From the sequence record NC_054917.1: DNA of 64,000 nt; one strand, 5' to 3'. A program made the position numbers and the translations under genes. The DNA is from Escherichia phage vB_EcoM_G50. Position 1 is the stretch's first letter. Each line of letters begins with the position of its first letter. The notes beneath the pieces were generated by a model that searched no databases, was not told where the DNA came from, and saw only the letters and a program-made list of their open reading frames with translations. Shown one piece after another: positions 21,942-30,270 of this stretch.

Positions 21942-22906
21942 TGTATTCTTTAGAGGAATTTAATAATCAAGCAATAAACGCAGATTTCCAACGTAATAAT
22001 ATGTTTAGCTGCGTTTTTGCGACAACTCCATCAACTAAAAGCTCTTCGTTGATAAGTTCAATTAGCAACTTTTCTTATAATAACTTGGGCCTAAATTCAG
22101 ATTGGTTAGGATTAACTCAAGGCGATATTAATCAGGGAATTACCACGCTAATTACTGCTGGCACACAAAAACTGATAAGAAAATCAGGGGTTAGTAAATA
22201 TCTTATTGGTGCCATGAGTCAACGCACAGTTCAAAGTTTATTGGGCTCATTTACAGTTGGTACATATTTAATTGATTTCTTTAATATGGCATATAACTCA
22301 TCTGGATTGATGATATACTCTGTAAAAATGCCAGAGAATAGATTATCCTATGAAACTGACTGGAACTATAATTCTCCTAATATTCGTATAACTGGGAGAG
22401 AATTAGACCCTTTGGTTATTTCATTTAGAATGGATTCAGAAGCTTGTAACTATCGTGCAATGCAAGACTGGGTTAACGCTGTTCAAGACCCAGTAACTGG
22501 ATTGCGTGCTTTGCCGCAAGATGTCGAGGCAGATATTCAGGTTAATCTTCATGCTCGTAATGGATTACCTCATACTGCTGTGATGTTCACTGGATGCATT
22601 CCAGTGTCAGTGAGTGCTCCTGAGTTATCATATGATGGAGATAACCAAATAACTACATTTGATGTTACTTTTGCGTATAGAGTCATGCAGGCTGGGTCAG
22701 TTGATAGACAAGCTGCGCTTGAATGGCTTGAATCTGCTGCTATAAATGGCATTCAAAGCGTTCTCGGAAATAGTGGAGGTGTTACTGGACTATCTAATTC
22801 GCTTTCACGACTTAGTAGATTAGGAGGAACTGCGGGAAGCATTTCAAACATTAATACTATGACGGGAATTGTCAACTCGCAAAGTAAAATATTAGGAGCA
22901 ATATAA
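21941..22906 (+). CDS. 54: Baseplate tail tube initiator gp54
   Basis: 321-aa ORF (T4 320); followed by strong hairpin terminator. Confidence 0.92.
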   Translation: MYSLEEFNNQAINADFQRNNMFSCVFATTPSTKSSSLISSISNFSYNNLGLNSDWLGLTQGDINQGITTLITAGTQKLIRKSGVSKYLIGAMSQRTVQSLLGSFTVGTYLIDFFNMAYNSSGLMIYSVKMPENRLSYETDWNYNSPNIRITGRELDPLVISFRMDSEACNYRAMQDWVNAVQDPVTGLRALPQDVEADIQVNLHARNGLPHTAVMFTGCIPVSVSAPELSYDGDNQITTFDVTFAYRVMQAGSVDRQAALEWLESAAINGIQSVLGNSGGVTGLSNSLSRLSRLGGTAGSISNINTMTGIVNSQSKILGAI

Positions 22907-22910
22907 CAAT

Positions 22911-22936
22911 GGGGACCGAAAGGTCCCCATATTTTT
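22911..22936. terminator. Terminator between gene 54 and minus-strand early block
   Basis: GGGGACC-GAAA-GGTCCCC followed by ATATTTTTATTT. Confidence 0.6.
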
Positions 22937-23225
22937 ATTTACGGAATGAAATAAAAGCAGCAACTGAAGCAACTAAACTGTCTTCAATATAAACTTCAAT
23001 TTTTACCGGAGCTTCTGACTCAAATTTACCTGTTACTACACCTTGGAAAATACTTTCAGTCTGCTCTGGCTTTGAAAAATTTTCAGAAGGAAAAATTCCG
23101 AACTTTTTATCTGTTCCAAAAATTTTGATAAATTCATCGTAAACTGCTTCATTAAAAGCATTATCAGCAGGAATAACGCCTTCAACTACAAGTTCTTGAC
23201 CTAAAAAGCGTAAAGAAGATTTCAT
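22935..23225 (-). CDS. Hypothetical early protein downstream of the alt genes
   Basis: 96-aa ORF with consensus sigma70-type early promoter and SD gagga 7 nt upstream of ATG. Confidence 0.6.
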   Translation of the reverse strand: MKSSLRFLGQELVVEGVIPADNAFNEAVYDEFIKIFGTDKKFGIFPSENFSKPEQTESIFQGVVTGKFESEAPVKIEVYIEDSLVASVAAFISFRK

Positions 23226-23254
23226 TTTGTGTTCCTCATGTTATGTAAGTAAAA

Positions 23255-23288
23255 TTATTATAACACAACACGAGGGACTTGTAAACTA
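23255..23288 (-). promoter_or_regulatory. Early promoter (sigma70-type, extended -10)
   Basis: minus-strand GTTTACA, 17 nt, TGTTATAAT. Confidence 0.6.
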
Positions 23289-25343
23289 CATTTTGAACTT
23301 TTTAGACATTCCGTTGATGTTAACCAAAGAAGCCAAGATTTGAGAAACTTCGTTTTCCTCTTCTTTTGATTCTTCTACAAGGAATTGATTAAATCCAGCC
23401 ATTGGACGAACTTCACCAGTTTCCATCAGATGATCGCCATCATATACCGATTCTTCTAATTGTTCAGAAGGAGGAACGATTGTGCCTTCGATTAAATACT
23501 TGTTATAAGCAGTTTCTTTCATCATGTACGTGCTCACTTTATTAATCTTCAGCAAAATTCCACGCGGTAAAATAACTTCAGCTTCTGATGGAAATCCTGA
23601 TAAATGACCTGGAACGATAACTTTGATTCGCTCAGCTCCTTTTATTACCATACCTACGCTAGTTTCAGCATCTTCATTAGCATATGCGGAATGACTACCC
23701 GTATGCATTAAATCTTCAGCATCAACTGAACCTTCTCCTTCACCAGAAAATACTGCACTGGAATCATCTAGGGCCATATAGTTTTTACCATACTCACCGA
23801 AGATATTTGGTTTAAGCGATGTGGATACGAAGTTCTTGAAATAGAACATTTTATTTTCAATATTATGACGTAAAGTTTTAAAGGTAACTTCTTGTCCACG
23901 GTAAAGTGTAGTTCCTGGAGGAAGAACTGATCCTTTGGCAAAGGCAGAATCCATTGTCTCGATGTGTTTAATAGCTCGTTCCATGTATTCTTCACGGGTA
24001 GAATCTGGTTTACCCAAGAGGAACGAGTTCATTTCAACATATGAATCTGCACAATAATCTTCAATTACATCGGACTCAGCCTGAGTTAATCCTTTTGGGG
24101 GTACTTCAGTACTTGCATATTCATACGCTTGAGAAGCAGACTCATTAATCAATTTATAAATGCCATTCATGACAAATTGAATAATAGCTACCTTTTCATC
24201 TGGCGTGGCTTTAGAACCTTTAACTAAATCATTGACAATTTTCTTAATAACATCAAAGCTATTAGAAATATTAATGTCAGCGAGATCGCTTAAAATTTTA
24301 TCAGTTTTATAATCAAAAAATTCTTTATTCTTTAAATATTCCTGAGAACCTTGATATGTTATATCGCTCTGTAACTTGATAGATGGATCACGTAAACGTG
24401 CATGAGCCAATGCAATATGATTTCGGAAGCTTTCTAATTCATAATCGCTAGATTTAAAACGAGAAGCACTTCTCATACCACCGATAGCTCCTTTGCTGAA
24501 GTTTGAACCAACCTGAATAACGCCAGAGTTCATTGGTCCTTCTGCTTTATATACCGGAACTTTAGATTCAAACTCTTGATATTTCTTAGCAGCGAAGCTA
24601 TCACCCTGAAGTGAAGCATCGACAGTAGAATATTGAGCTTGTGCTGCTAATCGACGACTAATTTTAGTTTTCTGAATAACAGCTTGATCCGTACGCTTAT
24701 CATTTTCTAAAGCAATAGAAGCAGCAACAGCAACAGCTTTAGGAACAGCATTACCTGTTTTAACGTCTACATAAACATCACCAACCTTTGATTCAACCTT
24801 TGTGAATAACTCAGTTGAAATAGGAGGTACACCTGGAATGTCTTCTAAATTGGCATTTTTACGGTAAACCATAATATATGTGTACTTTTTATCGTAATCC
24901 CAGATTTCCTTTAAAAGAACATATCGACCTGCTCCTTTAGTACGCACTAAACGATCGGCAATAACTTGCATTTGACGAGCTGCACCGTTTGTTTTACTCT
25001 TTAATACGCGGAATAGGCATGCGTCAATTTTGTACTGTTTCATTGTCTGAAGAGCAGTATCAAAAACCGCATTAATGACACCAATTGGATTTCCACCTAA
25101 GTTTTTAAGTTTAACTAATGATAGTTTCTCATTAACGCCTATCATTACGATATGCATCATTTTATCGCCTGGCTTAACGTTTTTATTTGTATCACCGCCA
25201 GAGGTGTATGTACAAAATCTAAATCCAGGAAGCACACTTTCTTCACCGGCTTGAATAGCAAAAATTTGAGGTATTTTATGCTTAGGATTTAAGTTAACAA
25301 CCGGCGCCGAAGCGCCGTCAAATAATTCTGTAATAAGTTCCAT
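23286..25343 (-). CDS. Alt-like ADP-ribosyltransferase, second tandem paralog
   Basis: 685 aa; N-terminal third clearly homologous to adjacent Alt (MELITELFD...); C-terminal ART-like signature LYRGQ, FVSTSL, EAEVILPRG; starts 4 nt after alt stop. Confidence 0.8.
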   Translation of the reverse strand: MELITELFDGASAPVVNLNPKHKIPQIFAIQAGEESVLPGFRFCTYTSGGDTNKNVKPGDKMMHIVMIGVNEKLSLVKLKNLGGNPIGVINAVFDTALQTMKQYKIDACLFRVLKSKTNGAARQMQVIADRLVRTKGAGRYVLLKEIWDYDKKYTYIMVYRKNANLEDIPGVPPISTELFTKVESKVGDVYVDVKTGNAVPKAVAVAASIALENDKRTDQAVIQKTKISRRLAAQAQYSTVDASLQGDSFAAKKYQEFESKVPVYKAEGPMNSGVIQVGSNFSKGAIGGMRSASRFKSSDYELESFRNHIALAHARLRDPSIKLQSDITYQGSQEYLKNKEFFDYKTDKILSDLADINISNSFDVIKKIVNDLVKGSKATPDEKVAIIQFVMNGIYKLINESASQAYEYASTEVPPKGLTQAESDVIEDYCADSYVEMNSFLLGKPDSTREEYMERAIKHIETMDSAFAKGSVLPPGTTLYRGQEVTFKTLRHNIENKMFYFKNFVSTSLKPNIFGEYGKNYMALDDSSAVFSGEGEGSVDAEDLMHTGSHSAYANEDAETSVGMVIKGAERIKVIVPGHLSGFPSEAEVILPRGILLKINKVSTYMMKETAYNKYLIEGTIVPPSEQLEESVYDGDHLMETGEVRPMAGFNQFLVEESKEEENEVSQILASLVNINGMSKKFKM

Positions 25344-25346
25344 GAT

Positions 25347-27440
25347 TTATCCTTGAACGAACTTGTAAGGCATGTTTGTAATATCTATGCAAGACGCAAT
25401 AATTCCAAGAGATGATTCTACTTTCTGTTTAACATTTGATGAAACAAACGATGCAAAGTCAACTCTGTCTTCTATTTCAATATCATCTGTCATTGCAACT
25501 ACTTCACCGGTTTCCATTAGACGGTCACCGTCATAAATGACTGATTCGGTGAGCTCTTCTGTAGTCATAACTTCAGCTTGAATGAGTTTTGTATTATTAG
25601 ATGTTGTTCCGTCATTATTAGAAGCATCAGTTATTTTATTAACTTTGACCATCAATCCGCGTGGTAGAATAACTTCAGCTTCTGTTGCTATTCCGAGACT
25701 TCCTGGATATACAACATTAACTTTATGAGCTCCATCAATTGCCCATCCTATTTGAACTTTAACGTATTCAGGATTTTCTTTATACGCTCTTATTTCGTTT
25801 GGATTAATAGTTATTCCTTCTTCATTTTTATCAACTGTTAATTCATTACGAGCTTCTGGTTCTAAAAGACCAATACCAGCATGCGTAATTCCAAAACGTC
25901 CAAAAATGATAGGAGTTAAAGAAGTAGATACAAAATTTCTGAAATAGAACACTTTATTTTTAACTAGCGCTTCGTATATAGGAGCAGTCATACTTTGAGC
26001 ACGATAAACTGTAATGCCTTCTGGTATACGGTCACCATTTTCAAAAGCTGAATCTAAATTATTTATCGCAGATTCAATTTCTTTTTCACTCATTACATCA
26101 TATCGTTCTGGATTGTAGCGGCCTAAAAGAAGATTATTGATGTCAGTATATCCTGATCCACAATACTCTCTAATGCCGCGCTTTTGTGATGGAGTATATT
26201 TAGAACCATCACGGGCAATAGTAATATCAATCATTGGACCTGCACCAATTCCAGAAAAGCTATAAATCATTCGTTTGAGGAATTTAGTTTTTGCTGCGTT
26301 CCAGGAATTTTTAGTTATTTCTTCCCAGACTTCATCTGGCTGTCCTTTACGGGTTTTATTATGTTTATCAAGCCAATTATCTTTATATTCTTCAAAGAAT
26401 TGATTAACAGCTGCTGCGTATTTCTCTAAACATTTTATTGAAGTGGTTGGTTCATTTTTAATCGCATTAAGAATTACATCTTTAATTTTTTCAGAAACTT
26501 CATTAACCTCACTTTTTGAAAAGAATTTATAGTCATAGTGAAGTTCATCTGCGGTTCCTTCGGCAATGATTTTTGCTGCCTTAGTTTTAGAAGCTAATGA
26601 ATTAATTCCAAGCTTCATTTCTTCTGCTTCGGGAATTAAAGGAGCTGTAGCAGGTTTATTGAAATTAGCTGCGGTAGATTCATATTTCTGGAATAATTCA
26701 CTTTCAAATCTAGAAGATTCCAATGACTGACTTTGCGCAATTGCTCTACGGGAAATTTTAACTTTAACGATTACAGCTTGGTCAGAACGTTTATCGTTTT
26801 CTTGCGCAATAGATGCCGCAATTGCCTCATTTTTAGTTACTTGAGCTCCAGTATCTTTATTGATATAAACATCGCCGACTTTCGATTCAACTTTAGTAAA
26901 GAGCTCGGTACTAATTTCCGGAACTCCTGGAATGTCTTCTAGTGATACATTTTTGCGATGTATAAGAATATATGCATACTTTTTATCGTAATCCCAGAGT
27001 TCCTTAAGAAGGACGTATCTGCCACCTGAACGACTGCGGATAAGTCTATCAGCAATAACTTGAATTTGTCGAGCTTGACCAGCAGTTTTAGACTTAAGAA
27101 TACGAAGCATACAGGCATCAATTTTATACTGACGCATCGTTTGCATCGCAACAGTAAAAACTGAATTGATGTAATTAATTGGGCTTGGACCGAGACCTTT
27201 CAATTTAGCAATTGAACCTTTAGCAGTTAATGTAAAAGGAACAATGTGCATCATTTTATCGCCCATCTTTAGATCACGGTTAGTATCACCTCCAGATGTA
27301 TAGGTACATAAACGAAAGCCTGGTTGTTCAATTGCGTCATCAACATGAACTGAAAAAATTTGCGGTATTTTCTTCTTTGGATTTAAGTTTGTAATCGGAA
27401 GAGTAGTATCTTCGTCAAATAATTCTGTAATGAGTTCCAT
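25347..27440 (-). CDS. alt: Alt ADP-ribosyltransferase (packaged RNAP-modifying enzyme)
   Basis: 697 aa from second ATG (MELITELFDEDTTLPITNL... recognised as T4 Alt; first ATG at 27443 has too-short SD spacing); ART signature VYRAQ, FVSTSL, EAEVILPRG; TATAAATA late promoter upstream. Confidence 0.87.
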   Translation of the reverse strand: MELITELFDEDTTLPITNLNPKKKIPQIFSVHVDDAIEQPGFRLCTYTSGGDTNRDLKMGDKMMHIVPFTLTAKGSIAKLKGLGPSPINYINSVFTVAMQTMRQYKIDACMLRILKSKTAGQARQIQVIADRLIRSRSGGRYVLLKELWDYDKKYAYILIHRKNVSLEDIPGVPEISTELFTKVESKVGDVYINKDTGAQVTKNEAIAASIAQENDKRSDQAVIVKVKISRRAIAQSQSLESSRFESELFQKYESTAANFNKPATAPLIPEAEEMKLGINSLASKTKAAKIIAEGTADELHYDYKFFSKSEVNEVSEKIKDVILNAIKNEPTTSIKCLEKYAAAVNQFFEEYKDNWLDKHNKTRKGQPDEVWEEITKNSWNAAKTKFLKRMIYSFSGIGAGPMIDITIARDGSKYTPSQKRGIREYCGSGYTDINNLLLGRYNPERYDVMSEKEIESAINNLDSAFENGDRIPEGITVYRAQSMTAPIYEALVKNKVFYFRNFVSTSLTPIIFGRFGITHAGIGLLEPEARNELTVDKNEEGITINPNEIRAYKENPEYVKVQIGWAIDGAHKVNVVYPGSLGIATEAEVILPRGLMVKVNKITDASNNDGTTSNNTKLIQAEVMTTEELTESVIYDGDRLMETGEVVAMTDDIEIEDRVDFASFVSSNVKQKVESSLGIIASCIDITNMPYKFVQG

Positions 27441-27463
27441 CATATCCTCTCTAGTGTTTATTC

Positions 27464-27471
27464 TATTTATA
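27464..27471 (-). promoter_or_regulatory. Late promoter motif (alt)
   Basis: TATAAATA on minus strand about 20 bp upstream of alt start, consistent with Alt being a packaged late protein. Confidence 0.5.
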
Positions 27472-27476
27472 AAATT

Positions 27477-27494
27477 AAAGGCCCGAAGGCCTTT
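27477..27494 (-). terminator. Hairpin between ligase operon and alt
   Basis: AAAGGCC-CGAA-GGCCTTT perfect palindrome; UUCG loop on minus strand. Confidence 0.4.
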
Positions 27495-27681
27495 AATAAT
27501 CTAATGGTAAGAGAGTACGATATATTTCAAACTTTGGACCTTTTTCATAGGCATCAAATGTTTCTGTGAATTTATTATAAGCATATGCATCTATAAATTC
27601 AATCATAATTTGTGATACAGAAGTAGAAACATCTCCACCTTCTTTTTGAGCAACGACAATTGTTTCTAAGTAAGCTTTCAT
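27493..27681 (-). CDS. Hypothetical protein between ligase and alt
   Basis: 62-aa ORF, overlaps gene 30 stop by 4 nt. Confidence 0.5.
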   Translation of the reverse strand: MKAYLETIVVAQKEGGDVSTSVSQIMIEFIDAYAYNKFTETFDAYEKGPKFEIYRTLLPLDY

Positions 27682-29141
27682 AGACCAGTTACCTCATGAA
27701 AATCACCAAATACATCCTCGAATGTATTAGCTTTAGTTTTATCTTCACGTAAACGAATCGCAATCGGAAGAAATAATTTAACGTAATCAGTGCGGCCATC
27801 AGATTTTAACCAACCGTTGCATTCGCACTCTAGAATTTTTCCAATATAATAATTTTGGTTTTCCATAATGCGAGTACGGTCAAGTTCATGCGATTTTACA
27901 CCGGCTTTATCTTTTAAGCCTGAACCTGCATTTACTTTAATTTTTCCACACTCTGATTCAAGAATAAATCCACCAGCTTTAGTAGGGTCTTTACGGTGAG
28001 GATAAATTCCTACAATTTTTAAATCAACATCAATTACTTCTTTAAATTTATAGAGATTTTTTGAACGAGCATTTTCCCACAATCCGTCGGTATTTTTGAG
28101 AATAATACCTTCAAAACCTTGGTCAATATATTTTTTATAAATTACCTTAGCTTCATCTAGGTTATTTACTACTTGGTTTTCAATTAAAATTACTTTATCA
28201 TATCCTGATGTCATTTGTTCTAGTTTAGAAAAACGTACATCATATTTTAAACGAAACGCCGGAAGACCGTATATTTCTACCAACGGGACATAATCCCAGA
28301 CCTGAAACTTCATGCATTTGGCTTCTTTTTCGGAAATGGTTCCTTTTAAGGATTTATTAGCGATTCCATTAGAAGTAGTACGAGATTCCGCTACTTCGGC
28401 GAATTCTTTAGCTTTACTAATTTCAGGATAAGCATCAAAAAGAAAATCTAGGCCTTCTGGTTCCTTTTTAACTTGCTCATGGTATACCAATTCGCCATCA
28501 ATTAACACACCTTCTGGATGAATCTGGCGGGCTTCAGCAGTCATTTTGATTAATTCTTCCTTAAGAAGATCTAATCCTAGATATTCATTACCAGCTCGTG
28601 ATAAAAGACGAACATCATCTAATTCATCACCTCGAACTTCAGCAAAACACCGAGATCCATCTGCTTTTAACTGTGCAAAAGCTGGAAACTTGATATTCTT
28701 ACTAATGCCTTTTTCATCATAAGAACTTGCCAGCATTTGAGGTTGTTCAGGAATTAAACCTGGCCAAACTTTGTTTGCAATAGATACTGAAGCACCGCAT
28801 TCAAGGTCTCGCATCATCACTCGACGCAAAACTTCAACATCATCCTTTTTACCATCGGTGATATATCCAGTCAATTCCTCAATTGCAGCATTTCCAGTCA
28901 ATTTCCGAGTAGCTAACGTGAATTCAATGAAGTCAAGCATATCGGTAATAGTCAGCATTCCAAAACTCTGGGTAGCAATACCAGGTTTAGGCCATTTCTT
29001 TATATAATACTGTAACCCACGAGAATAAGTCAGACGATATACCCGTTTAAGCAATTCATTATCTTTATTCTTTTCAAGAATTGCTTGCTTCTGCTTAGTT
29101 GATCCAATAGATGCTATTTCATTCAGAATTTTAAGAATCAT
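27678..29141 (-). CDS. 30: ATP-dependent DNA ligase gp30
   Basis: 487 aa, T4 length; adenylation lysine motif region (AQLKADGSR) and recognised N-terminus MILKILNEIASIGS. Confidence 0.95.
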   Translation of the reverse strand: MILKILNEIASIGSTKQKQAILEKNKDNELLKRVYRLTYSRGLQYYIKKWPKPGIATQSFGMLTITDMLDFIEFTLATRKLTGNAAIEELTGYITDGKKDDVEVLRRVMMRDLECGASVSIANKVWPGLIPEQPQMLASSYDEKGISKNIKFPAFAQLKADGSRCFAEVRGDELDDVRLLSRAGNEYLGLDLLKEELIKMTAEARQIHPEGVLIDGELVYHEQVKKEPEGLDFLFDAYPEISKAKEFAEVAESRTTSNGIANKSLKGTISEKEAKCMKFQVWDYVPLVEIYGLPAFRLKYDVRFSKLEQMTSGYDKVILIENQVVNNLDEAKVIYKKYIDQGFEGIILKNTDGLWENARSKNLYKFKEVIDVDLKIVGIYPHRKDPTKAGGFILESECGKIKVNAGSGLKDKAGVKSHELDRTRIMENQNYYIGKILECECNGWLKSDGRTDYVKLFLPIAIRLREDKTKANTFEDVFGDFHEVTGL

Positions 29142-29407
29142 TGTTCATCCTTCAGAGTTTGATTTACAGCTCTATTATAAATCAATTCATCATTAAGCTC
29201 AGGCAAAGACTTATGATATGTAGTTCTAACTTTATTTCCTTGCATCCAGTGCTTGACATAAATGAAACCTTGCTCTACACATTTTTTAAAAATTCGTTCG
29301 TCTTTTTGAGCTCGGAATTCTGGATTGCATCTAAAAAATTGATTTACGTGACCGTAATCACGTGTAGTATTACCTTCATTTTCATAAATAGTGTGAACGA
29401 CAAACAT
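29138..29407 (-). CDS. 30.1: Hypothetical protein (T4 30.1 position)
   Basis: 89-aa ORF overlapping ligase start; positional. Confidence 0.55.
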   Translation of the reverse strand: MFVVHTIYENEGNTTRDYGHVNQFFRCNPEFRAQKDERIFKKCVEQGFIYVKHWMQGNKVRTTYHKSLPELNDELIYNRAVNQTLKDEQ

Positions 29408-30270
29408 TAGAATGCTCCTTGGAAAATATTATCACCACTAGTAAATCTATTAAAATACCCTGCATCGCCAGGCTTGGTATAACTCCACGTATGGAATGGA
29501 TTCATATGATATGGGTGTGTATAATATGGATTATATGGATGTGTATAATATGGATTATACGGATTAAATCCAGGAGTTCTCCAGGTAGTGTTCCAACGAA
29601 AAGAATCGTTTTTAACCATCTTCTCAATTACATCTTTTATAGCTTTTTCACTATCAAAACTTTCTTTATTTTCCTTTGGTGAAAAAAGCTTATTTTCTAC
29701 ATCATTCCATGTATAAACTCGCTGAGCGGTTTTTGGAATATTGTCACGCTCTCCTCGCGCCATCCAATAAACAGGAACATTTAATATTTCACTCGCATGA
29801 TCGCAATGGTGAGCGAGATCGTCAATGTAACAAATTACGTTATATTTCTCTTTTGCCTTTTTGAACAACTCTTCTTTTGAAGAATCATGACCACACATCA
29901 TTACTTCTGAGAAGGCACCAGGAAAAAGAGCATTCAAATTAAATTGACGATTCAACAGAGCGTCAATAGAATCACCCAATGCTGTAACAGCTACAAAATT
30001 ATAATCTTCTTTTAATTTGTTAATTACACACAGGGCATCTTTATACGGAGACAAATAACGAATAAAATCTGAACGATTGTATTTTTCAATTAACTTGACG
30101 CCAAGTTCTTCATCACAATTAAAGAGTTTACCTGGAGAAATAAATTTCTCATCTTGGATCATTTTTAAAATATGTTCTAACGGAAGATTATATTTCTGAG
30201 CAAAATAAGGAAGGCCTGATTGCCAGCTTAAACATACTCCATCAATATCAGTTAAAATAGTAGGCTTCAT
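29407..30270 (-). CDS. 30.2: HAD-like hydrolase candidate with Tyr/Pro-rich repeat tail (T4 30.2 position)
   Basis: 287 aa; N-terminal ILTDIDGV resembles HAD motif I (DxDGx), later YIDD; C-terminal NPYYTHPY tandem repeat. Confidence 0.65.
   Translation of the reverse strand: MKPTILTDIDGVCLSWQSGLPYFAQKYNLPLEHILKMIQDEKFISPGKLFNCDEELGVKLIEKYNRSDFIRYLSPYKDALCVINKLKEDYNFVAVTALGDSIDALLNRQFNLNALFPGAFSEVMMCGHDSSKEELFKKAKEKYNVICYIDDLAHHCDHASEILNVPVYWMARGERDNIPKTAQRVYTWNDVENKLFSPKENKESFDSEKAIKDVIEKMVKNDSFRWNTTWRTPGFNPYNPYYTHPYNPYYTHPYHMNPFHTWSYTKPGDAGYFNRFTSGDNIFQGAF
29512..29559. repeat. 24-bp tandem repeat (2 copies, 2 mismatches) at 3' end of 30.2
   Basis: tgg(g/a)tgtgtataatatggattata x2; encodes NPYYTHPY repeat. 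Confidence 0.85.

Follow-up and report, generated by a model that had tools for sequence, protein, structure and literature searches.

A well-described counterpart of the locus analyzed here is the alt region of bacteriophage T4, in which the alt product (gpAlt, NP_049811, 682 aa) is a head protein present in about 40 copies and ejected with the DNA, the gene itself being non-essential (PMC9026906). T4 Alt is cut by the prohead protease gp21 at ITE-6 and LTE-619, as mapped by mass spectrometry (PMC5694885), and ADP-ribosylates Arg265 of the RNA polymerase alpha subunit, where ModA and Alt overlap (PMC2988021). T4 ModA and ModB, which are paralogous to the catalytic domain of Alt, belong with it to the R-S-E clade of ADP-ribosyltransferases (ARTs) (PMC5512222). 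In the T4 annotation, a single 682-aa alt is followed by the short open reading frames (ORFs) alt.-1, alt.-2, and alt.-3, as an earlier note on the present DNA had correctly stated, and according to the GenBank entry alt.-1/alt.-2 go back to an old duplication of the beginning of alt.

Adjacent to alt, 44RR (ORF187c/188c), RB49 (ORF183c), JS10/QL01, and ECD7 also carry Alt-like genes in tandem or in multiple copies (PMC1524935), and Dhakavirus and Krischvirus examples contain two to three ART places per record. The Alt duplications of these other T4-like genera represent separate lineages with their own center domains; JS10-type proteins share 47-50% identity with the center of the downstream copy discussed below, and others share none. 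For the kind of gene pair discussed here, a 2026 paper reported the two paralogs at 43% identity and proposed their functional divergence (PMC13600099). Outside phages, the bacterial toxins C3 exoenzyme, VIP2, iota Ia, CDTa, Vis, and Certhrax have the same catalytic fold and R / STS / ExE active site, although they share only 12-22% sequence identity with the present proteins, carry unrelated noncatalytic domains, and are delivered by secretion or a binary toxin pore, whereas Alt travels via the phage head.

In this article, a 64,000-nucleotide stretch of DNA from Escherichia phage vB_EcoM_G50 (NC_054917.1), referred to as the window, is discussed with respect to a tandem pair of alt-type genes whose novelty had been implied in the earlier note. 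That implication did not hold, as the pair is the standard annotated state in T2, T6, and about 400 phage records; the duplication is already known from the T4 GenBank note, Nolan 2006, and the 2026 paper, and the tandem Alt arrangement has been discussed in print (PMC1524935; PMC13600099). What is new here is the retention of both gp21 site motifs in each copy, dN/dS values of 0.02-0.05 relative to T6, a four-part AlphaFold architecture common to the two proteins, and a deeply divergent cassette in the upstream gene.

Organization of the Two-Gene alt Locus

Two intact minus-strand ORFs are arranged in tandem: the upstream copy at 25347-27440 (697 aa plus stop), an ortholog of T4 alt, and the downstream copy at 23286-25343 (685 aa plus stop). 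The upstream ORF was listed as 25347..27443 (698 aa) with an ATG-ATG start, and its second ATG at 27440, which is the annotated start in T4, yields the 697-aa product. The pair is flanked by gene 30/alt.1 on one side and alt.-3/gene 54 on the other and follows a T4-type late promoter, TATAAATA, found as a perfect match at 27464..27471 on the minus strand, 24 nt 5' of the alt start codon, and conserved in T4. No other perfect match occurs on this strand from 22900 to 27700, in agreement with the initial observation that only the upstream copy is preceded by a late promoter of its own. The spacing first described for the junction is likewise correct, with a 3-nt spacer between the genes (...GGA TAA atc ATG...) and the downstream ATG starting at the fourth base past the upstream stop. 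A Shine-Dalgarno-like AAGGA, read within the final codons of the upstream copy (25350..25354, minus strand), ends 6 nt 5' of the downstream ATG, and the upstream TAA (25347-25349) falls inside that interval. The layout of AAGGA, stop, and ATG is identical in T4, and the overlap of AAGGA with the end of the upstream gene would suit coupled translation.

The same gene pair is found in T6 ('alt.-2', AXN58232), T2 (EcT2_00208), PP01 (YP_010073571), and 6phi13/SHFML-11. In the T2/T6/PP01-type pair, coding sequences of 2094 nt and 2058 nt are separated by a 3-nt spacer as in the window, nothing of substance differs, and the closest records are 97-98% identical to the window at the nucleotide level. 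Both genes bear the RefSeq name 'Alt-like RNA polymerase ADP-ribosyltransferase'. The locus is probably the usual alt operon of T-even phages, with two genes that both encode Alt-type arginine mono-ADP-ribosyltransferases, and the pair represents the normal state of T2, T6, most T4 relatives, and hundreds of annotated Tequatrovirus genomes.

Catalytic Residues and Predicted Architecture

The assignment of both genes to the Alt-type ARTs, as originally proposed, is borne out by end-to-end matches to PHROG 802 (upstream residues 1-696, E=3e-272; downstream residues 1-685, E=3e-255) and by matches to Pfam PF03496 (ADPrib_exo_Tox) of 129 bits upstream and 73 bits downstream, both far exceeding the gathering cutoff of 23.4 bits; precomputed assignments of database homologs are to PF03496 and PF26846. 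The C-terminal signatures pointed out earlier, namely VYRAQ in the upstream and LYRGQ in the downstream copy, with FVSTSL and EAEVILPRG in both, were confirmed, and the R, S-T-S, and E-x-E motifs occur in this order in each protein. They correspond to R480 (26001-26003), S505-T-S507 (25920-25928), and E587-A-E589 (25674-25682) in the upstream copy, whose R and ExE align with their counterparts in CDTa, and to R482 (23898-23900), S507-T-S509 (23817-23825), and E587-A-E589 (23577-23585) in the downstream copy, all on the minus strand. The second copy, in which a loss of the catalytic R/S/E residues would have counted against the earlier reading, keeps R / STS / ExE intact; in the family alignment of 20 diverse homologs there is no variation at R482, S507, S509, E587, or E589 (numbered as in the downstream copy), and the motif string is retained in 112 of 117 full-length database homologs. 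Within the ART clade, an E-x-E rather than a Q-x-E motif predicts arginine specificity, and arginine-type ADP-ribosyl transfer is predicted for both copies from this motif.

The AF2 models, which are of moderate confidence (mean pLDDT 70.7 and 74.2) and were built on a shallow 20-sequence alignment, place the secondary-structure elements of the two proteins in one common order and predict a C3/VIP2/iota-like ART fold for both. In the modeled order of parts, each protein would begin with a short N-propeptide (upstream aa 1-6, 27423-27440; downstream aa 1-6, 25326-25343), followed by a conserved alpha/beta N-terminal domain (upstream aa 7-238, 26727-27422; downstream aa 7-239, 24627-25325), an all-helical center (upstream aa 239-410, 26211-26726; downstream aa 240-414, 24102-24626), the ART domain (upstream aa 411-632, 25545-26210; downstream aa 415-631, 23451-24101), and a disordered C-terminal tail corresponding to the C-propeptide (upstream aa 633-697, 25350-25544; downstream aa 632-685, 23289-23450), with all coordinates on the minus strand.

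Putative Prohead-Protease Sites and Proposed Packaging

Putative gp21 sites occur at aligned positions in the two copies, at ITE-6 and LTE-632 in the upstream and at ITE-6 and LEE-631 in the downstream protein. Both cleavage motifs are retained in 113-114 of 117 homologs, a conservation at aligned positions that is suggestive rather than proof of cleavage, given that [L/I]-x-E is a very short motif. It lends indirect support to the co-packaging that the earlier note considered probable. In the explanation proposed here, both proteins would be made late from one transcript and drawn to the prohead core via their shared N-terminal part and termini, where gp21 would trim both ends of both proteins to mature forms of about residues 7-632 and 7-631. 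Both trimmed enzymes would then be ejected with the DNA and, once injected, would modify arginines of host proteins by ADP-ribosylation, with target sets that differ in part and with specificity set by the unalignable helical center together with a divergent, low-confidence loop of ~25 residues between STS and ExE.

An unlikely alternative to packaging is that the downstream copy is a functional ART that stays out of the head and acts in the infected cell as a late equivalent of ModA/ModB. The other Alt paralogs of T4, ModA and ModB, are indeed not packaged (PMC5512222), and virion association of the downstream copy was not found in the proteomic literature, the searchable literature having yielded no virion proteomics, enzymology, genetics, or targets for this paralog and apparently no biochemical tests of the second enzyme. 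However, the downstream copy has the Alt-specific N-terminal domain in full, 67% identical to that of its paralog and under purifying selection, it keeps the MELITE-L N-propeptide and the C-terminal LxE-S..YDGD..ETGE where T4 Alt is processed, and it would share its late promoter with the known head protein. ModA and ModB, in contrast, are early-expressed proteins of about 200 aa that are without the N-terminal domain, the helical center, and the processed termini of Alt.

Paralog Divergence and Selection

The two copies share 40% identity over their full length (BLASTP, E=6e-157). The homologous N-terminal third recognized at the outset is evident from 55-75% identity per 40-column block over residues 1-238, and the strongly diverged center was also correctly identified, with 5-20% identity over residues 239-410, which are effectively unalignable. 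The divergence is not confined to the center, however, as the ART domain and tail are also only about 30-40% identical, with ranges of about 25-48% in the ART domain and about 25-35% in the C-terminal tail. The dS between the paralogs is 1.3-2.5 in all domains and the dN/dS of the N-terminal domain is 0.17; the copies are old paralogs with saturated synonymous sites, and their N-terminal likeness therefore reflects constraint and not recent gene conversion. In the comparison of the window with T6, dN/dS is 0.05 for the downstream copy (dS 0.23) and 0.02 for the upstream copy and is low in every domain, and both copies are under strong purifying selection.

These values also bear on the reading that both enzymes are redundant, sharing one target set (chiefly RNA polymerase alpha Arg265), with the pair maintained for reasons of dosage or robustness rather than to broaden the range of targets. 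Both copies have the E-x-E arginine-type motif and overall architecture in common, and alpha Arg265 is already a joint target of ModA and Alt in T4 (PMC2988021), yet such redundancy is improbable, because following a duplication so old that synonymous sites are saturated the center is 5-20% identical and the ART domain only about 35-40%, the loop separating the STS and ExE motifs differs between the copies in both length and sequence, and each lineage is tightly conserved by itself, a pattern typical of sub- or neo-functionalized paralogs. As for two injected enzymes with partly different targets, a more specific and tentative possibility is that the 685-aa protein, 'Alt2', serves as a second injected effector with a target set unlike that of Alt, for example neutralizing a host defense or toxin left untouched by Alt. 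If true, then owing to the loss of this gene from laboratory T4, 50 years of T4-based work would have missed a T-even host-takeover enzyme acting in the first minute.

The upstream copy, in turn, is 70% identical overall to T4 Alt and shares with it the genomic position 30 - alt.1 - alt, the late promoter, the upstream hairpin, the R/STS/ExE motif, and the ITE-6 and LTE cleavage motifs. The N-terminal 246 residues contain only one difference (~99.6% identity) and the C-terminal tail is 85-92% identical, whereas the center shows 17-28% amino acid identity and the ART domain 58-75% in conserved blocks and 25% in a variable loop, with dS >1.3. Both copies in the window differ from T4 Alt in the center and ART domain. 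The divergence of the upstream copy is concentrated in a cassette at 25680..26715 (minus strand) covering the helical center and most of the ART domain, delimited by nucleotide identity and dS. Within it, nucleotide identity to T4 alt in 60-nt windows drops from 95-100% to 27-72%, and dS exceeds 1.3, compared with 0.15-0.27 in the flanks; the 5' boundary near 26715 is sharp, and the 3' boundary is gradual, between 25470 and 25680. The window's T2/T6/RB14-type allele occurs in ~323 phage records and the T4-type allele in ~175. The center-plus-catalytic cassette belongs to an allele that differs from that of T4 and diverged from it anciently. Should the second injected effector prove real, the alt locus, with its dimorphic upstream cassette, would resemble the internal-protein (Ip) loci in being a modular effector locus subject to fast swapping.

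The Downstream Gene and Its Remnant in T4

The counterpart of the downstream copy in T4 is alt.-1/alt.-2 (NP_049810, NP_049809), which begins 3 nt past the alt stop; the gene is broken there, whereas the window carries an intact 685-aa ORF. Pairwise alignment of T4 with the window revealed a 1,699-bp stretch of the downstream copy (23306..25004, minus strand) that is missing in T4, with deletion breakpoints at an imperfect microhomology, YTAAARAGT, and the A-run at 25184 is also one A shorter in T4, causing a frameshift. In the 338 nt that T4 retains, alt.-1/alt.-2 and the downstream copy are 95-97.5% identical, and these T4 ORFs are pseudogene fragments of the downstream gene, broken by the 1-nt and 1,699-bp deletions. 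Laboratory T4 thrives without the downstream copy and T4 alt is non-essential; therefore, any benefit of the downstream copy must be conditional.

The remaining reading, that the downstream copy is, like its T4 counterpart, a duplicate in decay and without function, still open by chance in G50, could draw on its loss from T4 by frameshift and 1.7-kb deletion without obvious laboratory cost and on the about one quarter of ~540 records with the locus that are without most of it (400 have it), but it is very improbable and already strongly disfavored by the selection signature, namely the dN/dS of 0.05 at dS 0.23 given above, the 685-aa ORF intact in the window, T2, T6, and PP01, the invariant catalytic and processing motifs, and the 90-98% nucleotide identity of the T4-missing stretch across 400 records. 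The 90%-identity protein cluster comprises 772 member sequences. With the second enzyme lost, and with an Alt center and catalytic allele unlike those of most relatives, T4 is an atypical reference, and Alt targets derived from T4 may therefore not describe T2, T6, or therapeutic T4-like phages.

Neighboring Elements

The upstream neighbor of the pair is an alt.1 homolog of 62 aa (27493..27681, minus strand; Pfam PF24647, 'Phage blade protein'). Directly after it, a G+C-rich hairpin with a T-rich tail, AAAGGCC-TTCG-GGCCTTT, was read at 27477..27494 (minus strand); it is also present in T4, is absent from the listing of the consensus scanner, and is a terminator-like element that sets the late unit of alt apart from the early/middle unit upstream. 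At the other end, a bidirectional terminator hairpin between alt.-3 and gene 54 (22909..22930) is where the alt late transcript probably ends. Immediately 3' of the downstream-copy stop codon and 5' of alt.-3 lies a promoter-like site of the sigma-70 / T4-early type, TTTACA-17-TATAAT with a TG upstream (23257..23285, minus strand), which matches 11 of 12 consensus positions. The alt.-3 homolog itself (22935..23225, minus strand; 96 aa; DUF5498, Pfam E=1.4e-64 and T4 annotation) adjoins the duplicated alt genes and is not part of the pair; T4 alt.-3 mutants with a C-terminal extension evade the CmdTAC defense system (PMC11618068).

Identity, junction and transcription of the gene pair

The two adjacent alt genes of the window belong to a known family at its usual genomic place, already annotated and described. 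The window comes from a Tequatrovirus genome; its segment 22900-27700 is 97-98% identical at the nucleotide level to many T4-like phages of Escherichia, Shigella and Yersinia, and the minus-strand gene order is that of T4, namely 30 (DNA ligase), alt.1, alt and then alt.-3, facing gene 54. The two minus-strand ORFs described in the earlier note were recovered by ORF listing at 25347..27443 (upstream copy, 698 aa, opening with ATG-ATG, or 697 aa from the second ATG at 27440) and at 23286..25343 (downstream copy, 685 aa), and all of the motifs quoted there were found in the two proteins, which are 40% identical over their full length (BLASTP, E=6e-157). The PHROG 802 profile, 'Alt-like RNA polymerase ADP-ribosyltransferase', covers each protein over its entire length (E=3e-272 for the upstream copy and 3e-255 for the downstream copy), the Pfam PF03496 matches of both far exceed the cut-off, and both genes bear the RefSeq name 'Alt-like RNA polymerase ADP-ribosyltransferase'. 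NCBIfam contained no family matching either protein. In a PDB sequence search, the downstream copy had no match and the upstream copy had weak CDTa/iota-type matches alone (E ~4e-4), no solved Alt structure being found by sequence.

A late promoter had been proposed for the upstream copy only, and the sole perfect T4-type late promoter motif, TATAAATA, on the minus strand of 22900-27700 indeed lies before that copy at 27464-27471, just past a G+C-rich hairpin (27477-27494) located 3' of the preceding gene. The idea that the downstream gene has a late promoter inside the pair was rejected, as no perfect TATAAATA is present there; the nearest site with one mismatch, TATAAAGA at 25777-25784, is 434 nt upstream of the downstream ATG. 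This ATG stands close behind the upstream stop, as had been noted, in the junction GGA-TAA-atc-ATG with a spacer of 3 nt, and an AAGGA Shine-Dalgarno-like site lies within the final codons of the upstream gene. The upstream gene itself carries two consecutive ATG codons at 27440-27443, of which the second is favoured because the GAGG Shine-Dalgarno leaves a gap of ~5-6 nt before it and of only 2-3 nt before the first. The second ATG is the start annotated in T4, and it also agrees with the ITE-6 numbering obtained by mass spectrometry (PMC5694885).

A broken second copy in T4

The upstream copy is the ortholog of T4 Alt: the two proteins are 70% identical overall, differ at a single position in residues 1-246 (~99.6%) and are 85-92% identical in the C-tail. 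The downstream copy corresponds to T4 alt.-1 and alt.-2. T4 carries a pseudogene of this second copy. An ORF opening MELITELFDGASAPVV starts 3 nt past the T4 alt stop, exactly as in the window; it lacks one A of an A-run (window position 25184), which interrupts it, and a 1,699-bp deletion (window 23306-25004; T4 side of the comparison, sequence L001 5066-5451) then cuts it short. The deletion joins two imperfect microhomologies, TTAAAGAGT and CTAAAAAGT (YTAAARAGT), and the second-copy segments kept in T4 are 95-97.5% identical to the window at the nucleotide level. The C-terminal residues of T4 alt.-2 (…SSKCSLQVPRVVL) are an out-of-frame reading of the 3' terminal codons of the second gene in its ancestral form and of the intergenic promoter region. 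According to the T4 GenBank record, alt.-1 and alt.-2 go back to an old duplication of the initial part of alt. The description of T4 as having one full-length alt followed by short ORFs was therefore right.

Distribution of the tandem pair

The novelty implied for the tandem arrangement did not hold, since the same layout occurs in T2 and T6 and in hundreds of records and is already in print; the tandem alt pair is already known. T6 (MH550421) and T2 (AP018813) have an identical layout, a 2094-nt and a 2058-nt CDS lying 3 nt apart, and in the T6 record the second gene bears the annotation 'apparent insertion in alt.-2; also similar to alt'. Counted as records, with GenBank/RefSeq duplicates of one phage included, and not as independent isolates, the second-copy stretch missing from T4 is present in 400 phage records (90-98% nucleotide identity, coverage of at least 80%), the alt locus in ~540, and the downstream ADP-ribosyltransferase (ART) domain in 401 (at least 95% amino acid identity, tblastn). 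Two ART places were found by tblastn in each of these last records, among the matches listed, and one in T4 and its closest kin. Alt paralogs were listed for T4, RB49 and 44RR by Nolan et al. in 2006 (PMC1524935), and a 2026 genome paper on a Tequatrovirus reported 'two paralogous Alt-like proteins' at 43% identity and proposed functional divergence (PMC13600099). Searches of the literature for functional studies of the second paralog yielded genome-description statements alone, with no experimental characterisation.

A mosaic cassette in the upstream gene

Relative to T4 alt, the upstream gene is mosaic when nucleotide identity is followed per 60-nt window: identity is 95-100% up to ~26715, falls abruptly to 27-72% across the helical centre and the greater part of the ART domain, and climbs back gradually from 25680 to 25470. 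The dS against T4 alt exceeds 1.3 inside this cassette (25680-26715) and is 0.15-0.27 in the flanks; the centre-plus-ART region is an anciently diverged allele. The cassette type of the window is common to T6 and RB14; for T2 the comparison covers gene length, which is the same. The population is dimorphic, with ~323 records of the window type (at least 80% coverage) and ~175 of the T4 type. A T4-type upstream gene occurs together with an intact downstream copy in fPS-65, G9062 and SHFML-11, among others, so cassette type and presence of the downstream copy assort at least partly independently. Laboratory T4 is an atypical genome, lacking the second enzyme and carrying the minority allele of the first.

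Conservation and divergence between the paralogs

A three-way alignment of both window proteins with T4 Alt bore out the reported pattern of a homologous N-terminal part (residues 1-238, 55-75% identical per 40-column block) and a strongly diverged centre (residues 239-410, 5-20% identical and effectively unalignable), with identities of ~25-48% in the catalytic region and 25-35% in the C-terminal tail. Synonymous sites between the paralogs are saturated in every domain (dS 1.3-2.5), which indicates that the duplication is old. Recent gene conversion as the source of the N-terminal similarity was rejected because the N-domain is itself saturated (dS 1.67); with a dN/dS of 0.17, this similarity reflects constraint.

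The centre is the most variable module across the wider family, in which several mutually unalignable centres ride on N-domains 41-66% identical to those of the window. The isolated N-domains matched nothing in Pfam at E up to 10, and the isolated centres gave sub-threshold noise alone at the same limit (YtxC, CesA, Noc2, GHL6). The N-domain (residues 7-238) may bear a GNAT-like resemblance. The downstream centre (175 aa) had no detectable relatives among 1.84 billion cluster representatives searched with phmmer; a single marginal match (E=5.6e-4), a 31-residue stretch of a 1147-aa protein matched in 6 stretches, was regarded as noise.

Catalytic residues and maintenance

When both window proteins were aligned with 18 diverse homologs from the database, the catalytic Arg R482, S507 and S509 of S-T-S, and E587 and E589 of E-x-E (downstream numbering) proved invariant, and the catalytic motif string is present in 112/117 full-length homologs. 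Both copies look catalytically competent, as had been suggested, judging by these retained residues. AlphaFold2 models built from a shallow 20-sequence alignment (mean pLDDT 70.7 and 74.2) gave one shared architecture for both proteins: an alpha/beta N-domain (~residues 12-215) followed by a low-confidence linker, an all-helical centre (~248-410), an ART domain (~417-625) whose STS-to-ExE loop is of low confidence, and a mostly low-confidence C-tail. Compared with the T6 orthologs, the downstream copy has a dN/dS of 0.05 and the upstream copy one of 0.02; the ratio is low in every domain, centre included, so both genes are maintained by selection.

Within the R-S-E clade, E-x-E predicts arginine specificity, which would apply to both copies. 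As determinants of substrate choice, the obvious candidates would be the helical centres, which cannot be aligned, and the divergent loop from STS to ExE.

Probable packaging and processing

T4 Alt is a prohead-core and head protein, present in ~40 copies and ejected with the DNA (PMC9026906). Cleavage by the prohead protease gp21 behind ITE-6 and LTE-619 takes 6 residues off its N-terminus and 63 off its C-terminus (PMC5694885). The [L/I]-x-E motifs are kept at the aligned positions in the upstream copy (ITE-6 and LTE-632) and the downstream copy (ITE-6 and LEE-631), a conserved block S-x-x-YDGD-x-L-M-E-T-G-E follows right after the C-terminal site, and both processing motifs are retained in 113-114/117 homologs. 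Given the cleavage motifs and the N-domain and late promoter that the two copies have in common, both proteins are likely to be packaged, trimmed and injected, with predicted mature forms of about residues 7-632 (upstream copy) and 7-631 (downstream copy).

Neighbouring genes

The alt.1 homolog (27493-27681, 62 aa), whose coding sequence shares 4 nt with the end of gene 30, is a full-length match to Pfam PF24647, 'Phage blade protein' (E=6.9e-29). The region of the alt.-3 homolog (DUF5498, 22935-23285) has a strong promoter-like site of the early type to itself, TTTACA-17-TATAAT preceded by a TG, directly downstream of the stop codon of the second alt copy; C-terminal extension mutants of T4 Alt.-3 escape the CmdTAC defence system (PMC11618068). 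A 30.2-like ORF (29407-30270, 287 aa) carries a direct peptide repeat, NPYNPYYTHPY-NPYYTHPY, near its end, followed by an aromatic/proline-rich tail.
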